From a virus (lineage: Duplodnaviria > Caudoviricetes): a stretch of 64,000 nucleotides of DNA. Numbering within the stretch: position 1 is the first letter of the stretch; each line of letters starts with the position of its first letter. Made by a program: the position numbers and the translations under genes. Positions 43,640-56,106 of the stretch are shown here, one piece after another. The notes below the pieces were generated by a model. The model was not told the origin of the DNA. It did no database searches and worked only from the letters and a program-made list of their open reading frames with translations. The stretch spans positions 64,001-128,000 of the IMG/VR virus record IMGVR_UViG_3300013121_000044; one strand, written 5' to 3'.

Positions 43640-43828
43640 ATGCGCCCCGAAATCTCGCTGCTCACCGATCCCGCTCACGAGCAGGCTCTCGCCACGATGA
43701 AGAAGGCTCTCCGTCGTGCGGGCCTCCAAGGAGAGCCGACGAACCGTCAAGAACGGCGACGCCTCAACGCGATCTTGAGGAGCCTCGGGGCGCCTGAGCT
43801 CCAGGTCAACGGGACCCGACGCAGCTAA
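43640..43828 (+). CDS. Small hypothetical protein
   Basis: NRQERRR motif; TACGGT-N6-ATG start. Confidence 0.45.
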   Translation: MRPEISLLTDPAHEQALATMKKALRRAGLQGEPTNRQERRRLNAILRSLGAPELQVNGTRRS

Positions 43829-43856
43829 GACCCGCCGTACGACGTATTCTTCACAC

Positions 43857-46800
43857 GTGGAGTCTCTCTACGAAAAGATTGCCAGGGTTCTAACCGAGCT
43901 CCAACCGCATCAGGAGCGTCTCGTCGAAAAACTCCGCGCCTCGGGCGGCGTCGTCGCCGACTGGGGACTCGGGACGGGCAAGACCCTCGGGTCGATCGCC
44001 GCCAAGGACCGCCTGGGCGTTCCTGCCGACGTGATCGTACCGGCGCCCCTTCAAGCCAACTACCGGAAGGAGCTCCAGAAACACCTCGGCGAAGAACCGG
44101 ACGATGTGCGGATCCGATCCTACGAGGGCGCAGCCAAGGACAACCACGTCGACCCTTCCGGACTCGTGGTCTTCGACGAAGCGCATCGCGGGAGAAACGC
44201 GGGAACCGGCGCGGCGAAGCTCATGGATCAGGCGCGCGCCGCCAAGTACCGCCTCTTCCTCACCGGCACCCCGGTCTATAACTCCCCCGCTGACCTCGCA
44301 CCCCTGATCAACGCGGCGGCGGGACGCAAGGTTCTCCCGGACGATCCGAACCTCTTCAAGCAAACGTTTGTCGGACAGACCGTCGAAGAGGCACCTCTCT
44401 GGGACCGCCTCAAAGGCAAGGTCCTCGGGCATCCCATCCACACCGAGCCGCGACCGACGCTGATCAACCGAGACCGGCTGGTCCAGGCCACGCGAGGTTA
44501 CGTGGACTTCCATCGCGGCGGAGGCGCGGGGTTCCCGGACCGGATTGACGAAGAACATCTCGTCGACATGAGCCCGAAGCAGCGGGAGCTCTACACGTTC
44601 GCCGAGGGGAAAATGCCGTGGTACCTGCGCGCCAAGATTCGCGCCGGGCTCCCCATGTCGAAGCAGGAGTCCAAGGAGCTCAACGCTTTTCAGGGCGCCC
44701 TGCGCCAGATCGCCAACACGCCGCGCGGATTCGCGCAGGACATCAACGACGAGAACGAGGTGGAGCACTCCCCGAAGATCCAACGCGTGGTAGACCATCT
44801 CCTGGACGCGCGGAAGAAAGACCCAAACCATCGAGGCGTCATCTACTCGAACTACCTGGAGTCGGGAGTGCATCCTCTGTCGAGGGCGCTTGCCAAGGCG
44901 GGAGTGCCTCACTCCGTCTTCACCGGGGACGTGAGCGGACCGCGCAGGGCCCAGATGGTGGCCGATTACAACGCTGGCAAGACCCCCGTTCTTCTCGTGT
45001 CAGGCGCCGGGTCGGAAGGGCTTGATCTCAAGGGGACGCGGACGATTCAGCTCTTGGAACCTCACTGGCACGACCAGCGTCCCGCCCAGGTCATCGGCCG
45101 TGGGATCCGCTACAAGAGTCACGAGCACCTTCCCGAGAAAGATCGAAACGTGCGCGTGATGCGCTATTACTCGACGCTGCCCAAGGACGTAGAAGACCGC
45201 CTGGGAACGTTCATCGGCATGAAGCCCAAGCAGTCGATCGAGCAGTACCTCAAGCACATGTCGGGGGAGAAGACGCACATCACCGACCAGATCGCGGACG
45301 CCCTCCAGGAGGCGAGCGATTACGGGCCGCTTCAGAAGCGCGCGATTGAAGAGGTGTCACAGCGTTACGCCCTCCCGTACGCCGTATTGAGCAAAGTCGC
45401 AGGGTCCCGGTTCCTCGATATGGCGCGAAAAGGGGCGCTCGGCGTCCGGGACCTCGCGCGCGTAGGTCTCCACGGCGCGTCCGAACTCCACGGCCCCAAC
45501 GTTCGTGACGTGAGATCTCGGCTTTCCCAAGGCGTTTCGGATCTCACGGGGGCAGCAGCGCAACGCCACGACATGTTGAACGGGCGCTTGGCGGACAATA
45601 TCGTCCGCCGACACGGTGCATTCGTTCACGCGACTCCAACCGGGCCCGCCATGAATCTGGCAGGACACACGCTGCTGACGCACAACGCGATCCCCGAGGC
45701 GGCCGAACTGGTGGGAGGTGATTCCTCGCAGTGGATGCGCAACGCCGGGTCGTTGCGTAGGGCCCTCACCGAACATGAGATCGCGGAAGGGACAATGGCG
45801 GCGGGCACGGCGCGTCACCTGCGCGCTCTCGGACATCACACGTTCGCCGACAGCCTCCACCCGTCAACACCTGAAGCCGTCAAAGGTCTCGCCTCGACGC
45901 TCCGCCATGGGGGATTTGACGACGTAGCCGACGCTCTACACAAAGTCCCCACGCCTGCGACGCAGAGTTACGAACCCAAACCTTTTGGGTCGCACCTCGG
46001 TCCCTCCGCCGTGCTCTCGGAGCAACAAGCCCTGTGGCGAAACCCTGAGGCGCAGCGTATGCAAGCCTCCCTCCGCATAACCCCCGAAGAGCAAGAGATC
46101 GCCCGGCGTATCAAACAATACGGGGGGACCGAATCCCGACCTCTTCCGCTGGGCGGGAAGGCGCATCGAAAGCTGGAACAGGACGCGATTACTTTCAAGG
46201 AACTGTCCCCGGACGCGCAAAGGCTCCGCGCGCAGATCCCGAGCGCGTACATTAGCCCGGATCAGGCGGCGGCCACCCGGCAAGGCATCGAAAGCAGTCT
46301 TGCGGAGATGCGAGCTTACGTCCCGCCGGAGCAACACGCGGAGCTGGAGCATCAATTCGGAACTATGGCGGAAGCTGTAGAGAATCGCGCTGGAATCCGA
46401 CATCCAGTGCCCGATGAGGGGCGCCAACTTATGGCTCTCCTCTCTGCTCCTCGAAACGACGCCAACCCATGGCAAAAAGAGGGTGCCGTTCGAGACTCTC
46501 CCGACGATTTGCTCGCCCGCGTGGTCGAACACATGGGGGACTCCCAGCTCGGGAAGCAAAAGCGGGAGCGGTACATCGAGTTCTCCCACCCGGCGGGGAT
46601 CACCCTCCGTTCACCGTACGATGAGTCCTTCCTCGCAGATCAAGTGCGCGAGAAGTACAAGGGGGACCCTCATGCTTTCGCGGATCAGATCCGCGACGAC
46701 CTCCTCAACATGGGGTATGCGACCCTCGGCAGCATCACGAAGAAGAATCAGCAGCTCCAACGAAATCGAGCGGTCCAGGGAGCCGCGTACGGATCCCTCG

Positions 46801-47084
46801 CTGGCTCGGTCCTCGGATCGGCCGCAGGCGCTTTCGCGGCAGAAGGTTTGGACAGGGCCCTTGCGCGAAGGGGATGGAGGTCTTCCTACGGTCTCCCGAT
46901 GCTGGCGTACTTCGCCACGGGGCTGGGGGTCCCTCTCGCCCTCGGCACGGCGGGCTTCCACATCGGCAAGAACACCTACAAACCCCTCGGGAACGAAGAC
47001 GTGATCGCCAAGAACACGCACCCTCTGCTCATGCCTCCGAAGCCGGTGAAGCAGAAGGTCAAGCTGGTGATCGACGAGAAGTGA
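43857..47084 (+). CDS. SNF2-like helicase fused to an unknown module and a C-terminal membrane/glycine-zipper module
   Basis: WGLGTGKT, DEAH, LTGTP, SPKI, GSEGLDL, QVIGRGIR; two hydrophobic helices at the C-terminus. Confidence 0.85.
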   Translation: MESLYEKIARVLTELQPHQERLVEKLRASGGVVADWGLGTGKTLGSIAAKDRLGVPADVIVPAPLQANYRKELQKHLGEEPDDVRIRSYEGAAKDNHVDPSGLVVFDEAHRGRNAGTGAAKLMDQARAAKYRLFLTGTPVYNSPADLAPLINAAAGRKVLPDDPNLFKQTFVGQTVEEAPLWDRLKGKVLGHPIHTEPRPTLINRDRLVQATRGYVDFHRGGGAGFPDRIDEEHLVDMSPKQRELYTFAEGKMPWYLRAKIRAGLPMSKQESKELNAFQGALRQIANTPRGFAQDINDENEVEHSPKIQRVVDHLLDARKKDPNHRGVIYSNYLESGVHPLSRALAKAGVPHSVFTGDVSGPRRAQMVADYNAGKTPVLLVSGAGSEGLDLKGTRTIQLLEPHWHDQRPAQVIGRGIRYKSHEHLPEKDRNVRVMRYYSTLPKDVEDRLGTFIGMKPKQSIEQYLKHMSGEKTHITDQIADALQEASDYGPLQKRAIEEVSQRYALPYAVLSKVAGSRFLDMARKGALGVRDLARVGLHGASELHGPNVRDVRSRLSQGVSDLTGAAAQRHDMLNGRLADNIVRRHGAFVHATPTGPAMNLAGHTLLTHNAIPEAAELVGGDSSQWMRNAGSLRRALTEHEIAEGTMAAGTARHLRALGHHTFADSLHPSTPEAVKGLASTLRHGGFDDVADALHKVPTPATQSYEPKPFGSHLGPSAVLSEQQALWRNPEAQRMQASLRITPEEQEIARRIKQYGGTESRPLPLGGKAHRKLEQDAITFKELSPDAQRLRAQIPSAYISPDQAAATRQGIESSLAEMRAYVPPEQHAELEHQFGTMAEAVENRAGIRHPVPDEGRQLMALLSAPRNDANPWQKEGAVRDSPDDLLARVVEHMGDSQLGKQKRERYIEFSHPAGITLRSPYDESFLADQVREKYKGDPHAFADQIRDDLLNMGYATLGSITKKNQQLQRNRAVQGAAYGSLAGSVLGSAAGAFAAEGLDRALARRGWRSSYGLPMLAYFATGLGVPLALGTAGFHIGKNTYKPLGNEDVIAKNTHPLLMPPKPVKQKVKLVIDEK

Positions 47085-47090
47085 TCGGGG

Positions 47091-47801
47091 TCAGAGCGTG
47101 AACCGCGTGGGGAGCGCGGCGAAGAGCGCGTCCGGGCTCTTCTCGTTCGAGATCTCCCCCGCGCAGAATCCGATCAAGGTCGCCCGCGTAGGCTCCGAGG
47201 CGTGCGGGTCCTTGGGCCTGTCCGCGAGCCGCGCGCCCGCCTCGATCCAGTACACGTCCGCGCCCAGGCGCTCCTTGAGGTATTGGGCCTCGTTGGGGAA
47301 GCGACAGTCAGGAATCACGTAACGGGAGCCCGGGTCGGCGCTCACGGTACGCCGTACGGCGTCGAGCCACACCTCGTCCCAGACCCGCCGTCCCCACTCG
47401 GTGCCGAGCCTTTGGAGCACGGTGCGCGGACTCGTGAACGCCTCCTCGTACGGATCGAAGGCGCGCGTGAGGGAGTGCGCCGCCTCCTTGTCGGGGTCCC
47501 TGTCTCCGAAGAGCTCGGTGAGAGCCGTCCTGCCGTCGGGATCGAGCCGCAGCCACGTGATGGCAGCCTGGAGCTCGACGACGGCTCGACGCTTCTCGAC
47601 GGGAGAGAAACGGCGCTCACGAACGTGAGACGGGCCGTAGAGATCCTCCATGGTCAGCGTGGTCGGGAAGAACCGTTTGGCGAGGCCCTTCAGCTTGTCG
47701 GCCAGCGACAAACTCTTGTATCCCCTCTCCTGGACGAGCCAGTCGGCGACGGTAGACTTGCCCGAGCCCTTGGGGCCTGCGAGGGCGATGACGTTCTTCA
47801 T
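47091..47801 (-). CDS. Deoxynucleoside monophosphate kinase
   Basis: GPKGSGKST, LADKLK, PRTVLQRLGTEWGR, IPDCRFPNE. Confidence 0.9.
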   Translation of the reverse strand: MKNVIALAGPKGSGKSTVADWLVQERGYKSLSLADKLKGLAKRFFPTTLTMEDLYGPSHVRERRFSPVEKRRAVVELQAAITWLRLDPDGRTALTELFGDRDPDKEAAHSLTRAFDPYEEAFTSPRTVLQRLGTEWGRRVWDEVWLDAVRRTVSADPGSRYVIPDCRFPNEAQYLKERLGADVYWIEAGARLADRPKDPHASEPTRATLIGFCAGEISNEKSPDALFAALPTRFTL

Positions 47802-48070
47802 GAAACTCCTTCGGGGCGTCGCGGCGGGACGCCGTACGCAGGGTGGGGTGGAGGCTTCCGGGAGGGACCCATCCACCCTCCCGGCCCTGTATAGGACATG
47901 TGTACTCGCTCCCCGGAGGGCAGCCGCTTCACCACGATGACCCTTCGGTTGAGGGTCTTGGCCTGGGCGTTGGCGGTGGCGAGCTCCTCGTGTGGCGCTT
48001 CACCAGGGATCTCGACTTCGTGCTCGTCGAGGAGGAGGAAAGGGCGAACGGTGGGGTCGGTGGGGTCCAC
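47798..48070 (-). CDS. Hypothetical protein
   Basis: ATGA overlap with the kinase. Confidence 0.55.
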   Translation of the reverse strand: MDPTDPTVRPFLLLDEHEVEIPGEAPHEELATANAQAKTLNRRVIVVKRLPSGERVHMSYTGPGGWMGPSRKPPPHPAYGVPPRRPEGVS

Positions 48071-48079
48071 GCCCGGAGA

Positions 48080-48559
48080 CTACTGGGGTCCGGGCGCGCC
48101 GTCCATGACGGGCGGGGGGTCCCACGGGGCGCACTTCCTGCTCTTGAAGGAAACACTTTCCGTGCAGAGGATCTGCTCCGTCGCGATGTCCAGACCCTCC
48201 GTGAGCTCCGGCTCGCAGTCCAGGAAGTAAACCGCCCGACCGACCGAAAGGTCGCGCGTACGGAGGATGAGCCCCACCCCGAACTTCGACTCCGCGCCAC
48301 ACCCGATACGCTCGCGCGCAGCGCGGAGACGTTGAATCAGAGGAGAGAGCTCCTTGATGATCGGAGCGAAGATCGTCACTTCCGAAGGAGCGGAGGGTCG
48401 TGATTGTGTCGCCACACGCTGAAGCATGCCGAGCAACGTGAGGTGCCCGTGCGTGGTAGGGAGGTAGTGCGGAGGACCGATGACGACCAGAAGGTCGTCC
48501 GGGTGCAGCGCCGTCAGAAGCGGGGGAGGAGGCCCCGACAGGGTGGTGTTGTTCTCCAT
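48080..48559 (-). CDS. Hypothetical protein
   Basis: Start MENNTT at 48559. Confidence 0.5.
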   Translation of the reverse strand: MENNTTLSGPPPPLLTALHPDDLLVVIGPPHYLPTTHGHLTLLGMLQRVATQSRPSAPSEVTIFAPIIKELSPLIQRLRAARERIGCGAESKFGVGLILRTRDLSVGRAVYFLDCEPELTEGLDIATEQILCTESVSFKSRKCAPWDPPPVMDGAPGPQ

Positions 48560-48567
48560 ACCCCCGA

Positions 48568-48606
48568 GTCTAAACCCGGGGCCTCGACGGGTACAAGAAC
48601 ATGTAG
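48568..48606 (+). promoter_or_regulatory. Putative phage promoter GTCTAAA-N13-CGGGTACAAGAACATGTAG
   Basis: Second copy of the 27032 element. Confidence 0.6.
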
Positions 48607-48635
48607 CCCCACTCCTTGGGGCTCGGGAGGACCCT

Positions 48636-48941
48636 ATGCCGACCATCAAAAAGAACGACATCATCATCCGGACTTCGACGACAGGCCACCTCCGGGTGCC
48701 TGTCGGCGAACGCCTCCTGGCACGCGCCAGGATCGAAGTCGTCGAGATCCCTGTATCGTACCGGAACCGCCGCGTCGGAGTGGCGCTGTTCGTGGGGCGG
48801 CGACCCCTGCCGCCGATGGTGAACAACCGGCTGCTCGCGACAGCCTACGACGTATTCGTCCACACGAACGGCGCGGCGTCGATCCCCTACGAGGCGGCAC
48901 GGAATCACATCAGCTACAAGGAGATCCAGAAGGCCCTGTAG
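48636..48941 (+). CDS. Hypothetical protein
   Basis: SD GGAGG. Confidence 0.6.
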   Translation: MPTIKKNDIIIRTSTTGHLRVPVGERLLARARIEVVEIPVSYRNRRVGVALFVGRRPLPPMVNNRLLATAYDVFVHTNGAASIPYEAARNHISYKEIQKAL

Positions 48942-48966
48942 GCCCTCCGTACGCCGTACGCCGTAC

Positions 48967-48997
48967 GCGCCCCGTCTCCCTCTCGGAGGCGGGGCGC
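48967..48997. terminator. Hairpin between convergent genes
   Basis: GCGCCCCGTCTCC / GGAGGCGGGGCGC. Confidence 0.55.
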
Positions 48998-49018
48998 CCC
49001 CGGGTCTTCGTGTGGCCG

Positions 49019-49321
49019 TCAGCGTCGCCTCTTGGCCTTCTTCACCCCGTCCGTTCCGAGCTTCCCCCGCTCCTCCAGCAGGTGAAGGCAGTAGGCGACC
49101 TTCGCCCGTTGCGCGCTGATCGCGTCACGGTACCCCGAGGAGAGGTCCTTGAGCTGCTCGCGGACGGCGGCGAGCGATTCGTCAGAGTCACGCGCCATCT
49201 CCGTCTCTCGAACGGACGCGTCGGCGTCCACGATCGCGGCCCGAAGCGCCGTTTCGTCCATCCCGGCCGCCTCGTCGGCAAAGCCGGTGGGGAGTTTCTT
49301 GATCACTTTCTCGATCTTCAC
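49019..49321 (-). CDS. Hypothetical coiled-coil protein
   Basis: GTG start with SD GGAGG. Confidence 0.6.
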   Translation of the reverse strand: MKIEKVIKKLPTGFADEAAGMDETALRAAIVDADASVRETEMARDSDESLAAVREQLKDLSSGYRDAISAQRAKVAYCLHLLEERGKLGTDGVKKAKRRR

Positions 49322-49593
49322 GGGTCCTCCATCTGTCGAATGAGTTTGGCCTCCGTCACGTCGGTCATGCGCGCGACTGCGCTCAAGGCAGAGGTGAAGT
49401 CCTGCCACGCAGGCAAGGTCTCGACCCCCGCACGTTGGGAGGCAAGGCGCAGTGTATCCCAAAGCAGCGCGTTCGGGTGTTTGTGGAGACGAAGGAGCTC
49501 TCGTTCGAGACGTTGCGTATGATGGCGATCTCCTTTCCGCACGGAGACCGTGACGTACGTCACGTCCACGGTCCCCACCACGAAAAGAGTCAC
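49318..49593 (-). CDS. Hypothetical protein
   Basis: Part of a chain of overlapping ORFs. Confidence 0.5.
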   Translation of the reverse strand: MTLFVVGTVDVTYVTVSVRKGDRHHTQRLERELLRLHKHPNALLWDTLRLASQRAGVETLPAWQDFTSALSAVARMTDVTEAKLIRQMEDP

Positions 49594-49961
49594 CCTGCCC
49601 CCGTCGGGAGATCCACCCGAACACGCTTCGCTTCGTGGATCTGCGCCCAGAGTTTTCGTGTGGGGCGTCCGCGCAAGAGCTTGGCGTAGGCGACGGCCAC
49701 CGCGAGGGACACCTGACGCGTCTCATCGAGATCAAAGCGAGCGTGAACCGTCGTTCGATAAAGGTCCCGAAGACCCAACCAACAAGCGAGATCATGAAGG
49801 GCCTGCCGTTCCTGTACGCCGTCACGCTGTCCTTTCAGGCGTGCCTTCGCCGCGCGAATCTTTTTGTCGATCTCGACTCCGGTCACGACCATCGCCCGAG
49901 GAGCGTAACGGAGAGCGGCACGTGGTACAAGCGTTCGGGTAAAGACGTGCGCCTCGCGCAC
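49590..49961 (-). CDS. Hypothetical protein (start uncertain)
   Basis: Part of a chain of overlapping ORFs. Confidence 0.45.
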   Translation of the reverse strand: MREAHVFTRTLVPRAALRYAPRAMVVTGVEIDKKIRAAKARLKGQRDGVQERQALHDLACWLGLRDLYRTTVHARFDLDETRQVSLAVAVAYAKLLRGRPTRKLWAQIHEAKRVRVDLPTGAG

Positions 49962-49975
49962 TCAAGGAGACTCCC

Positions 49976-51340
49976 ATGAAGCTCACTGGTGTTCAGATCG
50001 AAAGTTTCTCGAAGGCTCTCATGTCCGCGTTCCCGAATCGCGGCGAGCTGGAGCGCATGGTGCTGTACCACTTCGGGGAGAACCTCAACACGATCGTGGA
50101 GGCTAGCCCCCTGACGTACACGGTCCACAAGCTCATCGAATGGGCGATGGCGCGAGGTTCCGTGGCTCAGCTCCTCAAGGCCGCCCGCACGGCCAACCCC
50201 GGCAACGAGCAGCTCGCCCGGCTGAATTTCGACGGCCCCGCCACGGCCTCGGTCCCCGCCACGCAACCTGCGCTTCAACGACACCTCTCCACGGAGAAGA
50301 CCATGGACTTCCGTGATCGACAGATTCACCTCTCGCACAAGAGGGGGCTCATCCTCCTCGTACAGGATGCTCTCAACACGAACAACGAGACGGCGCAGAA
50401 AGTCTTCGACGGCCTCTTCGAGGATGACGTGACGTACCAGGAGCTCCCCAACCTGAAGGATCGGGCGCTCGCGCGCGCAATCGACCGGCACCTCGGTGCC
50501 GGCCACAACATCAAGGAGACGCGCATCGACAACCTGCTCGACGCCATCCAGGGCGCCACGCCCGACCGCCGTTATTGCGAGACGTGCGGGCGATTCGATC
50601 TCGACCAAAAGGGCGGGAGCTGGTTCGTCCTCGACCGAGACACGTGCCCGAAGGACGACGGGATCTTCCAGCGGGTCGCGTTCCCGACGCCCTTCAGGGC
50701 ATGGACCGACCACCGGATGTACGAGCCCGAAACGGAGAAGGACGCCCAGAGGCTCCCCATCAAGGACGGACCGCTCCGTCGGTACATCAGCGACCAGGGT
50801 GGCGCCGTGGGCAAGTGGCTCGACACGGCACTGACCGCGACCAAGGGCGCGCTCTCCCTCGTCGACTTCGCGGACTACCTGCTCTGGCAGTCTCGGAACT
50901 TCGGTGACCCCACCTCGATGGCCGCCAAGGTGGCCGTCATCAAGGCCCTCACGGACCCTCGGTCCTTCGCCTTGGACGAGACGGGCGTCCGTATCGAGGT
51001 CAACCGGGCCCTCCAGTTCCGGGGGACCCAGATGGCGGATGTCCAGGAAGGAACGCGTGTCGAGCAGCAGCCCGTCGGGCCGGCTCACACGGGCGTCGTC
51101 ACGTCGAAGATCCTGCGCGAGACCCTTGCGCGGCTCTACCCGAGCAGTGGGGATGCGCGGCGTCTCGCGAACGACGTGGGGTTGCCTCAGGGGCGCGTCG
51201 ACTTCAACGGAAAGGCGCTCTCCTTCTGGTTCGAGGTCCTGGAAGAGGCCGAAAAGCTGCATCTGCTTCAGCGTCTCGTGGAGCTCGCCTACGAGCAGTA
51301 CCCCCTGGATCCCGTGTTGCGGGCGTACCTGAAGAAGTAG
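49976..51340 (+). CDS. EAD1 - unknown - EAD1 protein (two effector-associated domain 1 modules)
   Basis: N-terminus LTG.Q...F..AL.SAFP....LERM......NL..I.....L...V.KLI.WA.A.G....LL.AAR.ANPGN..L; C-terminus LR..LA.LYP...DARR.A.D.GL.......G.A..FW..VL.EAEK...L..L...A...YP. Confidence 0.8.
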   Translation: MKLTGVQIESFSKALMSAFPNRGELERMVLYHFGENLNTIVEASPLTYTVHKLIEWAMARGSVAQLLKAARTANPGNEQLARLNFDGPATASVPATQPALQRHLSTEKTMDFRDRQIHLSHKRGLILLVQDALNTNNETAQKVFDGLFEDDVTYQELPNLKDRALARAIDRHLGAGHNIKETRIDNLLDAIQGATPDRRYCETCGRFDLDQKGGSWFVLDRDTCPKDDGIFQRVAFPTPFRAWTDHRMYEPETEKDAQRLPIKDGPLRRYISDQGGAVGKWLDTALTATKGALSLVDFADYLLWQSRNFGDPTSMAAKVAVIKALTDPRSFALDETGVRIEVNRALQFRGTQMADVQEGTRVEQQPVGPAHTGVVTSKILRETLARLYPSSGDARRLANDVGLPQGRVDFNGKALSFWFEVLEEAEKLHLLQRLVELAYEQYPLDPVLRAYLKK

Positions 51341-51343
51341 AAC

Positions 51344-51769
51344 ATGCTCGTCTACATCGGCGTTCCCGCGAAGAGCTATACCGCACGCGGAGAACCGCAG
51401 AAGAGCGTCACCCTTTCGGACTTCTTCGGCGGCGATGCCGAGTTCCCGGACGTGACGGACTCCTTGGAGCGGCTGTGGTTGCTCGCTCCGTGGTTTCTCG
51501 TCCCTTCCAGCCAAGGCCCTTCAAGCCGGGGACTTCGACGAGACGTGTGCGTGGCGGGACACTACTTGCGAATCGTCCTTCGGGAAGACCGCAAGAACCG
51601 ATGCTTCTCCCTCTGGGTGGCGCCCATGGACCGACGGGAAGGCGGGAGCACCCCGCATAGCTGGGGTGCCCTTCACCGAGGCCCTTTCATCCCTTTCCTC
51701 CATCGCGAGACGCCCGACGCAGCGGCGCTCGCCTTCTTCCGGCTCTTCCAGCCGGGACCCCCCACCTGA
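51344..51769 (+). CDS. Hypothetical protein
   Basis: Starts 3 bp after the EAD1 gene. Confidence 0.55.
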   Translation: MLVYIGVPAKSYTARGEPQKSVTLSDFFGGDAEFPDVTDSLERLWLLAPWFLVPSSQGPSSRGLRRDVCVAGHYLRIVLREDRKNRCFSLWVAPMDRREGGSTPHSWGALHRGPFIPFLHRETPDAAALAFFRLFQPGPPT

Positions 51770-51790
51770 GTACGCCGTACGCCCGAGGGC

Positions 51791-51818
51791 TTGACAGCCA
51801 AGCGAGCCCGAGGAGAAT
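51791..51818 (+). promoter_or_regulatory. Putative sigma-70-type promoter TTGACA-N16-GAGAAT
   Basis: Intergenic, 11 bp after TACGCCGTA. Confidence 0.45.
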
Positions 51819-51844
51819 ACGTCTCCGGAGCCCTCCCCCTCGGG

Positions 51845-51893
51845 GAACGCCCCGCCGCCGCCGGACTCAGGACCCGGCGGCGGCGGGGCGTTC
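51845..51893. other. 20-bp perfect hairpin in putative 5' leader
   Basis: GAACGCCCCGCCGCCGCCGG / CCGGCGGCGGCGGGGCGTTC with a 9-nt loop. Confidence 0.8.
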
Positions 51894-51946
51894 GACTTTG
51901 GGAGGTGCACGGCGCTCGCGTCTCACTCCCACCGAAAGAAAGACCC

Positions 51947-52135
51947 ATGCCGAAAGTCTTCAAGTACACCGCCGAGTTCTTCTGTGGTGTGGAGCTTGAC
52001 TCCAAAGCCCTCGACGCGATCGAGGCTGCGATCGAAGGTGCTACGAACTACCGAATCCAGGCCGGCGTCGATCCGCGTAAGACGGAGGAGGTGGACGCCG
52101 CTGAGTACGAGCTCGAACACCTCGTTCCGAGATAG
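51947..52135 (+). CDS. Small hypothetical protein
   Basis: MPKVFKYTAEF. Confidence 0.5.
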   Translation: MPKVFKYTAEFFCGVELDSKALDAIEAAIEGATNYRIQAGVDPRKTEEVDAAEYELEHLVPR

Positions 52136-52144
52136 GATGCACCC

Positions 52145-52783
52145 ATGATGAACCTCGCCCGTAAACCGCGCGTCGGCGTCGACGTGGACGGCGTGCTCGC
52201 CGACCTCCTGACGCCTCTCTTCCAACACCTGAACACGCTGCTCGGTACGACGTACGCCCCTGACCACATGAAGGACTGGGACATCGCCGAGCTCGTTCCT
52301 CCCGAACGTCGCGACGAGTTCTGGAACACCTTCGGCCGGGAAGTGCGCGTGCACGACGCCCTCCAGCCCCTGCCGGGAGCGGTGGAGGGGATGAAGCTCC
52401 TCCAGGAGGTGGCGGACGTTTACATCGTCACCGCCTACCTTCGCTCCGCCCCGACCTGGGTGCACGACCGCGACCGGTGGCTCTCCGCGCACTTCGGGGT
52501 GGGCGACAGGAAGATCGTCCACACGCACGCCAAGTACGTGTTCTCCGGGGAGATGCTGATCGACGACAAGCCCGAGACCGTGGAGCGATGGTGCCGAGAA
52601 CACCCGAACGGGCGCGGAGTCCTCTGGGATCAGCCCTACAACCGCGCCGCCGCAACGCGACAGATCCTCTGGTCTTCGGAGACGTTTTATCACGTGACCG
52701 GCGGGAACAGCCACGCGATGATCCCTTTCAGGACCTCGGACTGGTCCTGTGTCTGCGCGATTCTCCACGAATGGCGACCGTGA
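52145..52783 (+). CDS. 5'(3')-deoxyribonucleotidase (HAD, NT5C family)
   Basis: VDVDGVLAD, IVTA, LIDDKP, QPYN. Confidence 0.9.
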   Translation: MMNLARKPRVGVDVDGVLADLLTPLFQHLNTLLGTTYAPDHMKDWDIAELVPPERRDEFWNTFGREVRVHDALQPLPGAVEGMKLLQEVADVYIVTAYLRSAPTWVHDRDRWLSAHFGVGDRKIVHTHAKYVFSGEMLIDDKPETVERWCREHPNGRGVLWDQPYNRAAATRQILWSSETFYHVTGGNSHAMIPFRTSDWSCVCAILHEWRP

Positions 52784-53193
52784 AGTTCCTTCACTTCGAC
52801 GCCTTCGGGATCTACGTACCCGGAGGCCCGGTCGACCAGATCATCGACGCCTTCGACGAAGCCAAGGTCGTCTACCGGCACCACCATCTGACGGGCGGGG
52901 TTTTCGAGATCGGCTATCTCACCACCCCGCGCGCCGCCAAGATCGTCGACCGCGTCGCCAAGCGCTACTACGCCGAACGCGTGTGGCGCTTCCGCGAGGC
53001 CCAGCTCAAACTCCTCAACAAGCACTTCCCGGAGGAAGCGTTCGAGCAACTCCCCGAAGTGCTCGATAGCAGCCATGCGGGGCTTTGCGCACACTTCGAT
53101 CTTCCCACGCAAAACTGCACCCACTGCGGCGAACCCTGCCCGACCCCGCTGGTCGACAATGGTCGCTGCCCCCACTGCAAGGAGCTGACATGA
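52780..53193 (+). CDS. Zinc-ribbon hypothetical protein
   Basis: CTHC...CPHC. Confidence 0.55.
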   Translation: MKFLHFDAFGIYVPGGPVDQIIDAFDEAKVVYRHHHLTGGVFEIGYLTTPRAAKIVDRVAKRYYAERVWRFREAQLKLLNKHFPEEAFEQLPEVLDSSHAGLCAHFDLPTQNCTHCGEPCPTPLVDNGRCPHCKELT

Positions 53194-53615
53194 CTCTCAA
53201 ACGATACGCCGCGATCATCCGCGTCGAGCACGACCCCCTCTTCGAGGGCGAAGAGATCGCCGAAACCCTCCTGGGGCTGGATCACATCCGCGCTCTGAAC
53301 TTCCACGCCAGTACGGACGAAGGTCCGAGCGAGTACGCCATCGTGTACGCGACGAGCCTCGATCCCGTTCTCGGGCTGGAGGAGATTCTCGACAACGCGG
53401 GGGGCGAGATCGAAGACTGGGACACGCGCCCCGAAACGCTCATCCTGTCGATCTCCGAGAAGGAATCCGACGAAGAAGCTCTCGCCCGGGTCGAAGCGCT
53501 CATCAAGGTTGCGGACAAGGACATCCTGATCGGTGGGCCCGATCCGGAGCCTACCGAGGAACATCGGACGACACACCCCGACATCCTCGGGGGCGACAGC
53601 CCGGAGGACGCGTGA
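53190..53615 (+). CDS. Acidic hypothetical protein
   Basis: Part of a chain of overlapping ORFs. Confidence 0.55.
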   Translation: MTLKRYAAIIRVEHDPLFEGEEIAETLLGLDHIRALNFHASTDEGPSEYAIVYATSLDPVLGLEEILDNAGGEIEDWDTRPETLILSISEKESDEEALARVEALIKVADKDILIGGPDPEPTEEHRTTHPDILGGDSPEDA

Positions 53616-54151
53616 TGGGCGCCCCGACTCCCGAAGCCGCCTGGAGCGGCTGGACCCCCAAGGACGTGAAGAAGCACCGCGTCGCCGTCTACGCCCTCGG
53701 GGACGGGACGTACGAGGCGTTCGCGCGGAACGCGAAGATCCCCTCGGACGCGACGCGCCTCGAACCGCAGCCCGCGCTCCCGAGCTCCGGCGACCCTCAC
53801 GAGGGGACGCGCGTCGCGATGAAGAAGCTGGAGTCGCAACACCCGATCCACATCCAGTGGGGCTGCTTCCTCGCCGTCTCGATCGCGAAGCGCCGCATGA
53901 CGGTCCACTCGCGCGACGTGTGGGAGGAGATGCTGCGCCGGGGCCTCGTCGAGCCCAACAGCCCCTCGCCCCACTGGATGGGCGCGGTGTTCCACCGGCT
54001 CAAGAACGAGAAGGTGCTCACCTCCACGGGCCAGTACTTCAAGTACTCGGATACCGCACGCGACAACCACGAGCGCAAGATCACCATCTGGGCCCTCGTC
54101 GAAGGCGCGGACACGGCGGCGTACGACGCCGAGCCCGCGCAGAAACCGTGA
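53612..54151 (+). CDS. Hypothetical protein
   Basis: GAVF...H.R.I.IW motif seen in small phage proteins. Confidence 0.6.
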   Translation: MMGAPTPEAAWSGWTPKDVKKHRVAVYALGDGTYEAFARNAKIPSDATRLEPQPALPSSGDPHEGTRVAMKKLESQHPIHIQWGCFLAVSIAKRRMTVHSRDVWEEMLRRGLVEPNSPSPHWMGAVFHRLKNEKVLTSTGQYFKYSDTARDNHERKITIWALVEGADTAAYDAEPAQKP

Positions 54152-54597
54152 ACGACGAGGCGGAGCGCTTCCGGTACTGGTGGCCCTACGTATTGGCCGC
54201 CGCCCACCACCAAGCGGGCCACTACGACTACCGCACCCACATCCTCCGCGTCGTCCTCCGTGAGGATGCGAAGAAGGAGAACATCGTCGACCCTCACAGT
54301 CTGGACGCCGCCGTGGAACATACGGCGTCGCTCTCCTATGCGGACGCGGTGCAGGTCCTCGCCCCGATCGCCAAGGACCTCCCGCCGAGTCATAGCATCC
54401 AGGCGCCTCTTCAGGCTCTTCAAGAGCCCGCTCTGCGAGAGGAGAAGCACGTGGTGCTCATCTCGCAGACAGGGCACTTGGAAGTCGACGCGTTCGTCTT
54501 TCCCACTCCCATGCTCCGCAACCGGAAGTCCACCGCGTCGGTTTCCGTCGTGGCGGCCCTGGCCCTGGCCGAGCCCGGGGCAGGGAAGTCCGGCTGA
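54148..54597 (+). CDS. Hypothetical protein
   Basis: GTGA overlap. Confidence 0.5.
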   Translation: MNDEAERFRYWWPYVLAAAHHQAGHYDYRTHILRVVLREDAKKENIVDPHSLDAAVEHTASLSYADAVQVLAPIAKDLPPSHSIQAPLQALQEPALREEKHVVLISQTGHLEVDAFVFPTPMLRNRKSTASVSVVAALALAEPGAGKSG

Positions 54598-55289
54598 TGG
54601 ACGCGAGACCCCAGAACCTGAGGCGCAGTCTCGTACGGGAGGCGCTCACCGAGCGCGTGACGGCGGAGGCGCTCCTCCTCGACCGTACGGCGTATGCCGA
54701 GCTCCACGCGGCGCTCGCCAAGCTCTCCCCCCATGAGGCCGAGGTGGTGTCTCGCCACTTCGGCCTCATGGGGGAGCCCGAGACCTACGAAGCCATCGGA
54801 GCATCCTTCGGGAAAACCAAGTCCGCCGTGGGGGCCACCCTGCGGCGCGCTCTTTGGCATCTCCACCTCCTCCTCCGTGACGGGCCCGAACCCCTCGCCC
54901 CGGGACTCGACGCCGAGGAACGAGCCGACCTGCGTCAGATCGCGAACGGGTGCCCCCCGTTCGCGTTTCGTGACGAGGTGAGGCGTCGCCTCGTTCGACG
55001 TGGCCTCATTCGACAGAGGGAGCGAAACCCGGACCGTCTTCCCGAGCGCCTGAACTGGGAGGTCACGGAGAAAGGAGCGATCGTCGCACGCCTCGTCGAA
55101 CCCAACCCCTTCCGCCCCTACCGGTGCCTCTGCGCGGGGAAGTGGACGGCATGCCCGCTCTGCGGGGAGACCTATCACACGCACACGATGTCCGGGTTCT
55201 GGTTGCCGCCACGATGTAAGGTGTGTCGAGGCGAACTCGACCCGGCGAATGATCAAGGGCCCCACTTCACGCGAAGGCGGACTCGGTGA
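54597..55289 (+). CDS. Sigma-70 region-4-like HTH protein with C-terminal zinc ribbon
   Basis: LAKLSPHEAEVVSRHFGL..EPETYEAIGASFG...V....RRAL.HL. Confidence 0.7.
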   Translation: MDARPQNLRRSLVREALTERVTAEALLLDRTAYAELHAALAKLSPHEAEVVSRHFGLMGEPETYEAIGASFGKTKSAVGATLRRALWHLHLLLRDGPEPLAPGLDAEERADLRQIANGCPPFAFRDEVRRRLVRRGLIRQRERNPDRLPERLNWEVTEKGAIVARLVEPNPFRPYRCLCAGKWTACPLCGETYHTHTMSGFWLPPRCKVCRGELDPANDQGPHFTRRRTR

Positions 55290-55600
55290 CCCAACAAAAG
55301 AAAAGACTCCCTCACGTGGTTCGGAACGAGCATGGGGCCTTTTGTGTCCGGTGCGAAGGGGTGTTTCTCGGTGTACACACGGAGCGAGAGTCGAGCTCCG
55401 CGCTTCGCGACGCCCTCACAAAGGATCCCGAAGTCCCGCTGTACGCCGCCTGCCTGCCAGAGGGAACAAAGGTCTGGGAAGGAGCCGTAGCTGCCGTTAT
55501 CAACGACGCCTACATGCGCGAGAGCTCGGACTACGCGAACATCTGCCAGATCCTCTGGAACAAAGTGCAGGCTGCCCGGCGCAAGTTGAACCTCATCTGA
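55286..55600 (+). CDS. Hypothetical protein
   Basis: Part of a chain of overlapping ORFs. Confidence 0.5.
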   Translation: MTQQKKRLPHVVRNEHGAFCVRCEGVFLGVHTERESSSALRDALTKDPEVPLYAACLPEGTKVWEGAVAAVINDAYMRESSDYANICQILWNKVQAARRKLNLI

Positions 55601-55612
55601 CCCAGGAGACCC

Positions 55613-55801
55613 ATGAACCTCACGAAAAACGAAATCAACCTCATGCGCAAACCCCCGGCCAAGTTCGTCGGCCGGGACAAGCGCACCGCCGAAGAGCTCG
55701 TCCACAAGGGCATGTTCCACCAGACGAGCAAGGACCAGTTCGAGCTCACGGAGGCGGGGCAGAAGGAGCTCGACGCTCGCGCCCCGAAGAAGACGGGATG
55801 A
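55613..55801 (+). CDS. Small winged-helix-like protein
   Basis: LVHKGM...FELTEAG. Confidence 0.5.
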   Translation: MNLTKNEINLMRKPPAKFVGRDKRTAEELVHKGMFHQTSKDQFELTEAGQKELDARAPKKTG

Positions 55802-56106
55802 GCCGCAGGAAATCTCAACCCGAGGAATCCCCTGCGCCCACCCAGGAAGACATCGACGAAGGCATCTGTCTGGACGAGCGCGAAGGCGAGATCTCCCGAG
55901 GGTTTCGGGGCTCCGTTTGCGAGGATGGAGTGGCAGCGCTTTACCAGCGTCGCGTCCTCGCCCAGAGCACGTCTCGCTCTCACCTCTTTCAGCTCCTTCG
56001 CGCGAAGGCTGAGGAGCTCTGCTTTCCTCGAATCTTCGAGGTGAACGATCACGGGAACGTAACCGAGTTCTCCTACACCGGCAAAGTGCTGGGGGAGTGG
56101 GTATGA
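55798..56106 (+). CDS. Hypothetical protein
   Basis: FP.IF.VNDHGNV motif common in phages. Confidence 0.55.
   Translation: MSRRKSQPEESPAPTQEDIDEGICLDEREGEISRGFRGSVCEDGVAALYQRRVLAQSTSRSHLFQLLRAKAEELCFPRIFEVNDHGNVTEFSYTGKVLGEWV

Follow-up and report, generated by a model that had tools for sequence, protein, structure and literature searches.

A phage protein with EAD1 domains of two subtypes around a conserved middle domain is a candidate mimic of host immune adaptors

The window analyzed here is a stretch of 64,000 nucleotides, bases 64001 to 128000 of a 186,803-bp virus record in IMG/VR (IMGVR_UViG_3300013121_000044), and the gene under study occupies positions 49976 to 51340 of its plus strand. 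This gene encodes a protein of 454 residues, P0001, both termini of which are confirmed to be bona fide EAD1 domains (effector-associated domain 1) of two different subtypes, here called A and B. Between them lies a domain of 245 residues, X, which is the most conserved part of the protein. No other EAD1 gene and no core conflict-system gene is present in the phage, and any EAD1 partner must therefore be encoded by the host. Our preferred reading, offered tentatively and with slightly less than even confidence, is that P0001 may be a phage adaptor mimic that docks on host EAD1 proteins and blocks or diverts their signaling.

EAD1 domains of two subtypes at the ends of P0001

The gene was taken from a list of open reading frames (ORFs) and their translations. 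It starts with ATG, its coordinates include the stop codon, and its guanine-plus-cytosine (GC) content by codon position (0.66/0.42/0.86) is coding-like for a sequence with 65% GC. Homologues align with P0001 over its full length at 42 to 99% identity. An earlier note on this DNA had recognized an EAD1 variant at each end of the protein, and the Pfam model of the domain (PF19955; model length of 90; curated gathering cut-off of 24.2 bits) bears this out. The whole of P0001 matches the model with an E value of 1.6e-33 in two stretches, which were placed by a six-frame search of the entire phage genome; the same search produced no match in any of 14 control genomes. The N-terminal stretch, of subtype A, comprises residues 1 to 83 (49976 to 50224, plus strand) and scores 71.7 bits over model positions 1 to 85, while the C-terminal stretch, of subtype B, comprises residues ~379 to 452 (51110 to 51331, plus strand) and scores 50.0 bits over model positions 10 to 86. 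These limits lie within a few codons of those proposed earlier.

Structure prediction also recovers an EAD1-like fold at the two ends. In the AlphaFold2 model, each end is a helical bundle of five to six helices with predicted local distance difference test (pLDDT) values, averaged by block, of ~77 to 92 (~77 to 91 for the N-terminal domain and 88 to 92 over most of the C-terminal domain), and low-confidence linkers join both ends to the middle of the protein. The linker at residues 84 to 111 (50225 to 50308, plus strand) is disordered and weakly conserved, with pLDDT below 50 for residues 87 to 111 and, across close homologues, a pairwise identity of ~20%. An Atlas model of the N-terminal domain superimposes on the EAD1 of bacterial EAD1-trypsin (Trypsin_2) and EAD1-NACHT clusters with a template modeling (TM) score of 0.87 to 0.92 by query, a range that becomes 0.79 to 0.92 once EAD1-NACHT-FGE-sulfatase and EAD1-SIR2 clusters are included. 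When the full-length model was compared with the death fold using Foldseek, the match was weak (ankyrin-1 death domain 2yqf; E value of 2.1, probability of 0.35, TM score of 0.37 by target).

The two ends are also divergent from each other, as the earlier note had held. BLASTP found no alignment between the N-terminal and C-terminal domains, and a tree of 53 EAD1 domains, mapped across the family with a hidden Markov model (HMM) built from close homologues, splits into clades A and B with 100/99 support and places the two ends of P0001 on opposite sides of the split. Clade A contains all N-terminal EAD1 domains along with the C-terminal domain of some X-EAD1 proteins, and clade B consists of C-terminal EAD1 domains only.

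Subtype A has relatives outside the X family. A subtype A profile retrieves proteins lacking X that are 33 to 45% identical to the phage domain over ~87 to 90% of its length, and the phage A end is 41 to 45% identical to the EAD1 of cellular adaptor and effector proteins. The subtype A domain of the phage is thus closely related to working cellular adaptors. Besides the two small dual-adaptor proteins P0068 and P0078 described below, the proteins retrieved include an EAD1 protein on a cellular contig with a weak SLATT-like match (P0075) and an EAD1-nSTAND1 NTPase that is marginal in the profile search (P0079; E value of 2.3e-4). When the N-terminal EAD1 was the sole query of a word-based search for homologues, every protein returned belonged to P0001's own family. 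We also observed a 476-residue protein (P0076; positions 1730 to 3160 of contig L018) in which two C-terminal EAD1 domains follow an N-terminal region of ~300 residues that is not X. Its contig is phage-like, with a PG_binding_1 gene and small codirectional ORFs, suggesting that X is not the sole cargo that phages attach to EAD1.

The presence of two subtypes in one protein could also serve a purpose internal to the phage, in which A, as the basic end, and B, as the acidic one, would pair in cis or head to tail and P0001 would polymerize or close on itself as a self-contained scaffold. The calculated isoelectric points of A (9.3) and B (5.7) do complement each other, the family repeatedly combines both subtypes in a single polypeptide, and death-fold-like adaptors are known to polymerize (discussed in PMC7159879). 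Nevertheless, many family members carry a single subtype (X-A or X-B) and so have no A-B pairing within one protein species, and the similarity of the A end to cellular EAD1 would be hard to explain without a cellular partner; we regard such a scaffold as very improbable. Co-folding of the subtype A and subtype B alignments returned no answer (score of 0.00) and weighs neither way on A-B pairing.

The middle domain X and its family

Domain X, which defines the family, comprises residues 112 to 356 of P0001 (50309 to 51043, plus strand). AlphaFold2, supplied with an alignment of 32 sequences, models it with a pLDDT of 94.8 and a predicted TM score of 0.78 as two sets of five helices, between which lie a four-stranded unit resembling a zinc ribbon and then a long ordered loop. 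The CxxC that the earlier note had seen in the middle of the protein corresponds to Cys201 and Cys204 and proves to be half of a zinc-ribbon-like motif, C201-x2-C204...C224-x2-D227 (residues 199 to 227; 50570 to 50656, plus strand), in which the fourth zinc position is Asp227 in P0001 and Cys in many relatives. Across 32 diverse X domains, Tyr154, Cys201, Cys204, Trp216, Cys224, Trp243, Asp256, Pro261, and Leu302 are near-invariant and His121 is mostly conserved. The loop (AWTD..PGT..D..R.PI) is highly conserved and confidently modeled. Among five full-length close homologues, the mean pairwise identity of X is 60%, whereas the N-terminal and C-terminal EAD1 domains reach 38% and 41%, respectively, and the linkers 20 to 30%.

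Searches with X did not connect it to any known family or fold. It matches no Pfam, PHROG, PADLOC, or NCBIfam model. The Pfam family HEWD (PF20576) was rejected as an identity, since the match of 17.8 bits falls below the cut-off of 27 and covers only residues 194 to 222, the zinc-ribbon knuckle. Foldseek against the PDB gave a best E value of 0.5 and no clear fold, and VIA-align against 48,161 chains gave a best Z score of 5.7 over 70 residues (the GIPC GH2 domain), which is within background, as are the helical domains of HhH glycosylases at a Z score of ~5. A structure search of the ESM Atlas with X reached TM scores of at most 0.29, a feature search of the Atlas gave no usable match, and a sequence search of the PDB with the X profile returned only chance-level matches to Axin (E value of ~1). 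The helical halves of X were considered as cryptic copies of EAD1 and were rejected on profile-profile comparison (hhalign probability of at most 5%). X is a new domain, not a spacer, without a recognizable known fold or family. The 32-sequence alignment contains no catalytic-looking set of conserved polar residues and no invariant residues of the hydrolase, nuclease, or NTPase type. We infer that X serves for binding and is not an enzyme.

If X were instead an enzymatic or toxic effector that has escaped recognition, P0001 could be a captured copy of the dispersed "EAD1-effector" genes, a host-derived moron without a specific role in anti-defense. Stand-alone genes of this type are typical of genomes that use EAD1 (PMC7159879), a cellular X-EAD1 member exists (on contig L005), and the conserved loop together with His121 could form an active site of an unrecognized kind. 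However, the invariant residues of X do not resemble those of known enzyme classes, no Pfam, PADLOC, NCBIfam, or known enzyme-fold match supports an effector, and most contexts of X are phage-like rather than cellular. The A-X-B form is also kept to ~25 to 30% identity in phage-like contigs. We therefore consider a captured effector quite unlikely.

The earlier note had suggested a survey of related phages for genes of the EAD-X-EAD type, and such genes were found. An X profile scored against 1.84 billion representative proteins yielded 51 representatives at an E value of 1e-3 or less, 19 of them at 1e-30 or less. Of the 49 X-family representatives scanned for other domains, 37 carry EAD1, two carry EAD7, two carry a protein kinase, and one carries an M48 peptidase. 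The architectures found are A-X-B, X-A, X-B, and tandem forms (X-A-B and X-B-A), and A-X-B, with its two different adaptors, extends down to the ~25 to 30% identity given above.

Eight of nine X-family contexts are phage-like, with dense, codirectional, overlapping small ORFs and, in several cases, PHROG matches. They comprise the window with its sister contigs L003 (ENA; 29 kb) and L004; contigs L007 to L009, with a DNA polymerase exonuclease subunit; L010, with a helix-turn-helix, terminase-small-like protein; L011, a short contig; L012, with a PAPS reductase (E value of 2e-124); L014, of 65 kb; L015, of 96 kb, with an RNA ligase (E value of 8e-101), a tRNA synthetase, and a nucleoside deoxyribosyltransferase; and L016, of 58 kb. 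The cellular-looking context is that of P0014 on L005, a contig from an NCBI assembly, on which Ser/Thr kinase, TPR, and CAP-domain genes lie on mixed strands. No megablast match to positions 45000 to 56000 and no tblastn match to P0001, P0048, or P0031 was found among the 50,697 phage genomes of INPHARED, and pattern-based scans of IMG/VR and of GTDB species genomes (A2, P0014, P0048, P0031, and P0058) revealed no relatives. The X family is rare and known only from metagenomes, and P0001 belongs to a mostly phage-borne family rather than being a one-off.

A broader X HMM confirmed three of the kinase fusions (P0064, P0065, and P0067; E value of ~1e-33). For the Ser/Thr kinase domain of a further one, P0058, the nearest PADLOC model is the PD-T4-6 defense kinase (E value of 7e-10). 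As an observation in its own right, these four fusions (553 to 649 residues) have X at the N terminus and the Ser/Thr kinase at the C terminus, ESM Atlas clusters of their length come mostly from Acidobacteriota, and they may be defense kinases with X as the sensor. The one metagenome contig that represents the X-kinase form (L020, positions 56 to 1714) is short, and its context is uninformative.

Setting, divergence, and possible role of the gene

The phage setting assumed by the earlier note is confirmed by the record, which carries direct terminal repeats and is rated 100% complete by CheckV. Elsewhere in the window, ORFs have matches among phage families of helicases, thymidylate synthases, and nucleotide metabolism, two of them being an SNF2 helicase and a nucleotidase of the NT5C type, and the EAD1 gene is surrounded by replication and nucleotide-metabolism genes. 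The note had also seen no cognate system genes nearby, and the same now holds for the complete phage genome: EAD1 matches occur in the P0001 gene alone, there is no match to Trypsin_2, caspase (Peptidase_C14), EAD2, EAD7, or MoxR-type AAA_5, and the sole AAA_16 signal is a sub-threshold match of 20.3 bits inside a DNA helicase. No tyrosine integrase or large serine recombinase domain was found in the genome either. With no core NTPase or effector genes present, an intact phage-borne EAD1-coupled conflict system (MoxR-vWA ternary, GAP1, or STAND) was rejected, and a prophage defense island was rejected on the lack of an integrase or recombinase domain. The P0001 gene is a solitary one in a phage that appears to be virulent.

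Among 25 genes shared with the sister phage on L003, the EAD1 gene has diverged the most, with a protein identity of 78% versus 85 to 100% for the 24 flanking genes. Its rate of nonsynonymous substitution (dN) is 0.145, the highest of 24 scored comparisons, the other 23 of which are all at or below 0.077; its synonymous rate (dS) is 0.338 and its dN/dS is 0.43. The dN/dS of the SNF2 gene was discarded as a codon-mapping artifact across a gapped alignment. The gene forms a divergence hot spot within a 19-kb block, with its immediate neighbors being 96% (upstream) and 92% (downstream) identical to their counterparts in L003. Fast divergence of the sort expected of an arms-race gene is thus supported.

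These features suggest how P0001 might act. The phage would make a three-part protein consisting of a subtype A EAD1, a noncatalytic zinc-ribbon domain X, and a subtype B EAD1, and the EAD1 ends would dock by EAD-EAD pairing onto host EAD1 proteins, with STAND/NACHT, VMAP, iSTAND, and GAP1 cores and trypsin, caspase, SIR2, and TIR effectors as candidate targets. Two EAD1 subtypes would be occupied at once and X would be brought into the complex, so that the sensor would be uncoupled from the effector or mis-wired and the EAD1-coupled abortive-infection response of the host would be blunted. That P0001 acts on host EAD1 proteins at all would follow from its genuine EAD1 domains and the lack of a phage-borne partner, provided that the proposal of homotypic EAD-EAD coupling (PMC7159879) is right; we infer both the binding of its ends to host EAD1 and a net inhibitory outcome. 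Counter-defense is favored by the location of the gene in a phage that lacks lysogeny genes, by its fast divergence, and by the combination of variable adaptors with a constant cargo, since EAD1 ends that vary more than X fit host-specific adaptors around such a cargo. A bolder form of this proposal is possible but doubtful: phage-specific bivalent EAD1 mimics (A-X-B, X-A, and X-B) would be a first counter-defense against EAD-wired NTPase conflict systems, with the subtypes capping or cross-linking the sensor and effector sides in the host and X, as a new zinc-ribbon fold, binding a conserved component of the complexes. If true, such a family would offer a first experimental handle on whether EAD domains couple by homotypic contacts.

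Several points weigh against an adaptor mimic. Homotypic binding between EAD domains is itself a computational proposal (PMC7159879). P0001 is not adaptor-only, since X is its most conserved part and, in some relatives, is joined to a Ser/Thr kinase or an M48 peptidase instead of EAD1. At least one X-EAD1 member, P0014 on L005, comes from a contig that appears to be cellular, where its neighbors are a Ser/Thr kinase gene and TPR genes. Because dS is raised too, the divergence of the gene may reflect allele exchange by recombination rather than positive selection, and allele replacement is as possible an explanation as accelerated substitution. Finally, the fusion pattern of X marks an input or constant module under the "EAD principle," in which conflict proteins combine constant input modules with variable effector or adaptor outputs (PMC8195603), and this pattern fits a pro-death or sensor role equally well.

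The last point leads to a reading in which host immunity is turned to the advantage of the phage instead of being silenced. P0001 would be a sensor-adaptor whose X domain detects a signal, for instance a rival phage or a particular stage of infection, and whose EAD1 ends recruit host EAD1-tagged effectors, resulting in superinfection exclusion or timed host killing that benefits the phage. The fusion of X in relatives to alternative outputs (EAD1, EAD7, the M48 peptidase, and the PD-T4-6-like Ser/Thr kinase) is the pattern just described, and the better conservation of X than of the EAD1 ends points the same way. On the other hand, the phage lacks an integrase or recombinase and carries the gene amid replication and nucleotide-metabolism genes, and setting off the death effectors of the host would carry a cost for a phage in its own lytic cycle. 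A divergence faster than that of neighboring genes is, moreover, more typical of counter-defense. We consider a sensor-adaptor credible but unlikely and retain the adaptor mimic as the preferred reading.

Expression signals of the gene were partly as the earlier note had described them. Direct reading of the sequence places a Shine-Dalgarno-like AAGGAG at 49964 to 49969 (plus strand), 6 nucleotides before the ATG, in agreement with the note. The promoter-like motif that the note placed upstream was not recovered, as a sigma-70 scan of the 83-bp intergenic region (49893 to 49975) found no promoter. This region is bordered on its other side by a divergent gene for a protein of 100 residues (P0011; 49590 to 49892, minus strand), which is supported by 96% identity to and synteny with L003, and the transcription unit of the EAD1 gene must therefore start within it. 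By the same synteny, the EAD1 gene is the first of a plus-strand unit after this divergent region. A gene for a protein of 141 residues (P0010; 51344 to 51769, plus strand; 92% identical in the sister phage) begins 3 nucleotides past the EAD1 stop codon and is possibly cotranscribed with the EAD1 gene. P0010 has no family match, and it was rejected as a conserved partner because it is kept in the sister phage only and is absent beside more distant family members.

Farther out, several features of the neighborhood were observed. The sigma-70 scan placed a TTGACA-type promoter-like site at 51791, 3' of P0010, and this TTGACA/GAGAAT site (51791 to 51818) lies in the gap between P0010 and the NT5C gene (51770 to 52144), which measures 375 bp here and 169 bp in the sister phage; a mechanically called ORF of 114 residues within the gap (51791 to 52135) is of doubtful reality. 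Just 3' of the NT5C gene, at 52582 to 53113, contigs from two DNA runs (X1 and X3) carry ~445 other letters in place of ~530 bases and match the window almost exactly elsewhere, so that this segment, which overlaps a gene for 140 residues (52771 to 53190), resembles a swappable cassette. On the other side, synteny with L003 indicates that 47094 to 49892 holds mostly minus-strand genes, beginning with a deoxynucleoside monophosphate kinase (47094 to 47801) followed by five small genes, with one plus-strand gene (48636 to 48938) among them; the long plus-strand ORFs called mechanically in this stretch (e.g., 48404 to 49522) are probably not genes. In the region from 43716 to 47081, the SNF2-helicase fusion of the sister phage (1,122 residues) aligns from 43716, and the true start of the SNF2 gene is therefore probably upstream of the listed GTG at 43857 (1,075 residues).

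Metagenomes of activated sludge, sludge, and wastewater from 13 studies (2018 to 2025) contain near-identical copies of the EAD1 gene, as do one estuary and one algae metagenome; wastewater treatment plants widely harbor the phage that carries P0001. In at least two studies, the gene is also covered by contigs of metatranscriptomic libraries, and as such libraries may contain DNA, this coverage is no proof of transcription. No tRNA genes in the window gave a clue to the host.

Comparison with known systems

That viruses make their own versions of host immune adaptors is an established principle, both in eukaryotic viruses and in phages. Among the viruses of eukaryotes, vFLIP (tandem DEDs) and the poxvirus PYD-only proteins are death-fold decoys that consist of adaptor domains only. 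The earlier note had proposed that P0001 could be a decoy of this kind, an analogy that is not supported in that form. P0001 resembles vFLIP in being a viral protein with two host-type immune adaptor domains, but here the adaptors are separated by a large, well-folded X that is more conserved than they are, and a kinship of EAD1 to the Death superfamily is not established. P0001 reproduces a host immune adaptor in a viral genome that lacks the cognate system, but it does not consist of adaptor domains alone, and because of the latter we do not file it among the decoys; its sequence would instead group it with viral adaptor mimics.

The bacterial EAD1-effector and core proteins (VMAP, iSTAND, GAP1, STAND, and TRADD-N; PMC7159879 and PMC8195603) share with P0001 a layout of EAD1 plus another module. 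Unlike them, P0001 is encoded by a phage without core NTPase, vWA, VMAP, or effector genes, has EAD1 of two subtypes at its two ends, and carries in X a module outside the domains of Pfam, PADLOC, and NCBIfam. Closer in composition are two small proteins, P0078 (EAD1 and EAD2; 196 residues) and P0068 (EAD1 and EAD7; 174 residues), which, like P0001, combine two adaptors with no enzymatic domain and whose EAD1 is 33% and 45% identical, respectively, to phage subtype A; unlike P0001, they lack X. P0078 is encoded on a cellular contig (L017, 3920 to 5815) directly upstream of a Trypsin_2 protease gene and is likely a host-side bridging adaptor. Both proteins look like host bridging adaptors, the type of component that P0001 may imitate.

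In the searchable literature, no paper mentions a phage EAD1, a phage-side counterpart to EAD coupling, or an experimental test of EAD1. EAD domains have so far been defined by comparative genomics only, and they are proposed to couple sensors to effectors in the manner of Death domains. What is new here is EAD1 as a phage adaptor family, the bivalent A/B design, the X domain, and a mostly phage-borne family of shared plan. A phage family with two EAD1 subtypes that diverges fast and recurs across many samples of wastewater would be natural evidence that the EAD1 interface matters in infection, and its A and B domains are ready-made reagents with which to fish out host partners. X, for its part, links the phage proteins with cellular kinase and peptidase fusions.

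The nearest precedent comes from another adaptor family. The CARD-only protein (pCARD) of Acinetobacter phage 133 inhibits the CARD-dependent gasdermin system of Lysobacter (PMC10312443), and its publication makes the earlier note's statement that no phage anti-defense protein of this kind had been described outdated in concept. pCARD and P0001 follow the same logic of adaptor mimicry, in that each is a phage copy of a small helical immune adaptor encoded without the cognate system. They differ in design and in how they are known: pCARD is a single domain of 141 residues whose inhibition was proven by experiment, whereas P0001, at 454 residues, combines two subtypes of another adaptor domain with the conserved X and is known here from sequence. 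If P0001 inhibits EAD1-coupled systems, the principle of the viral adaptor mimic would extend to a second bacterial adaptor family.

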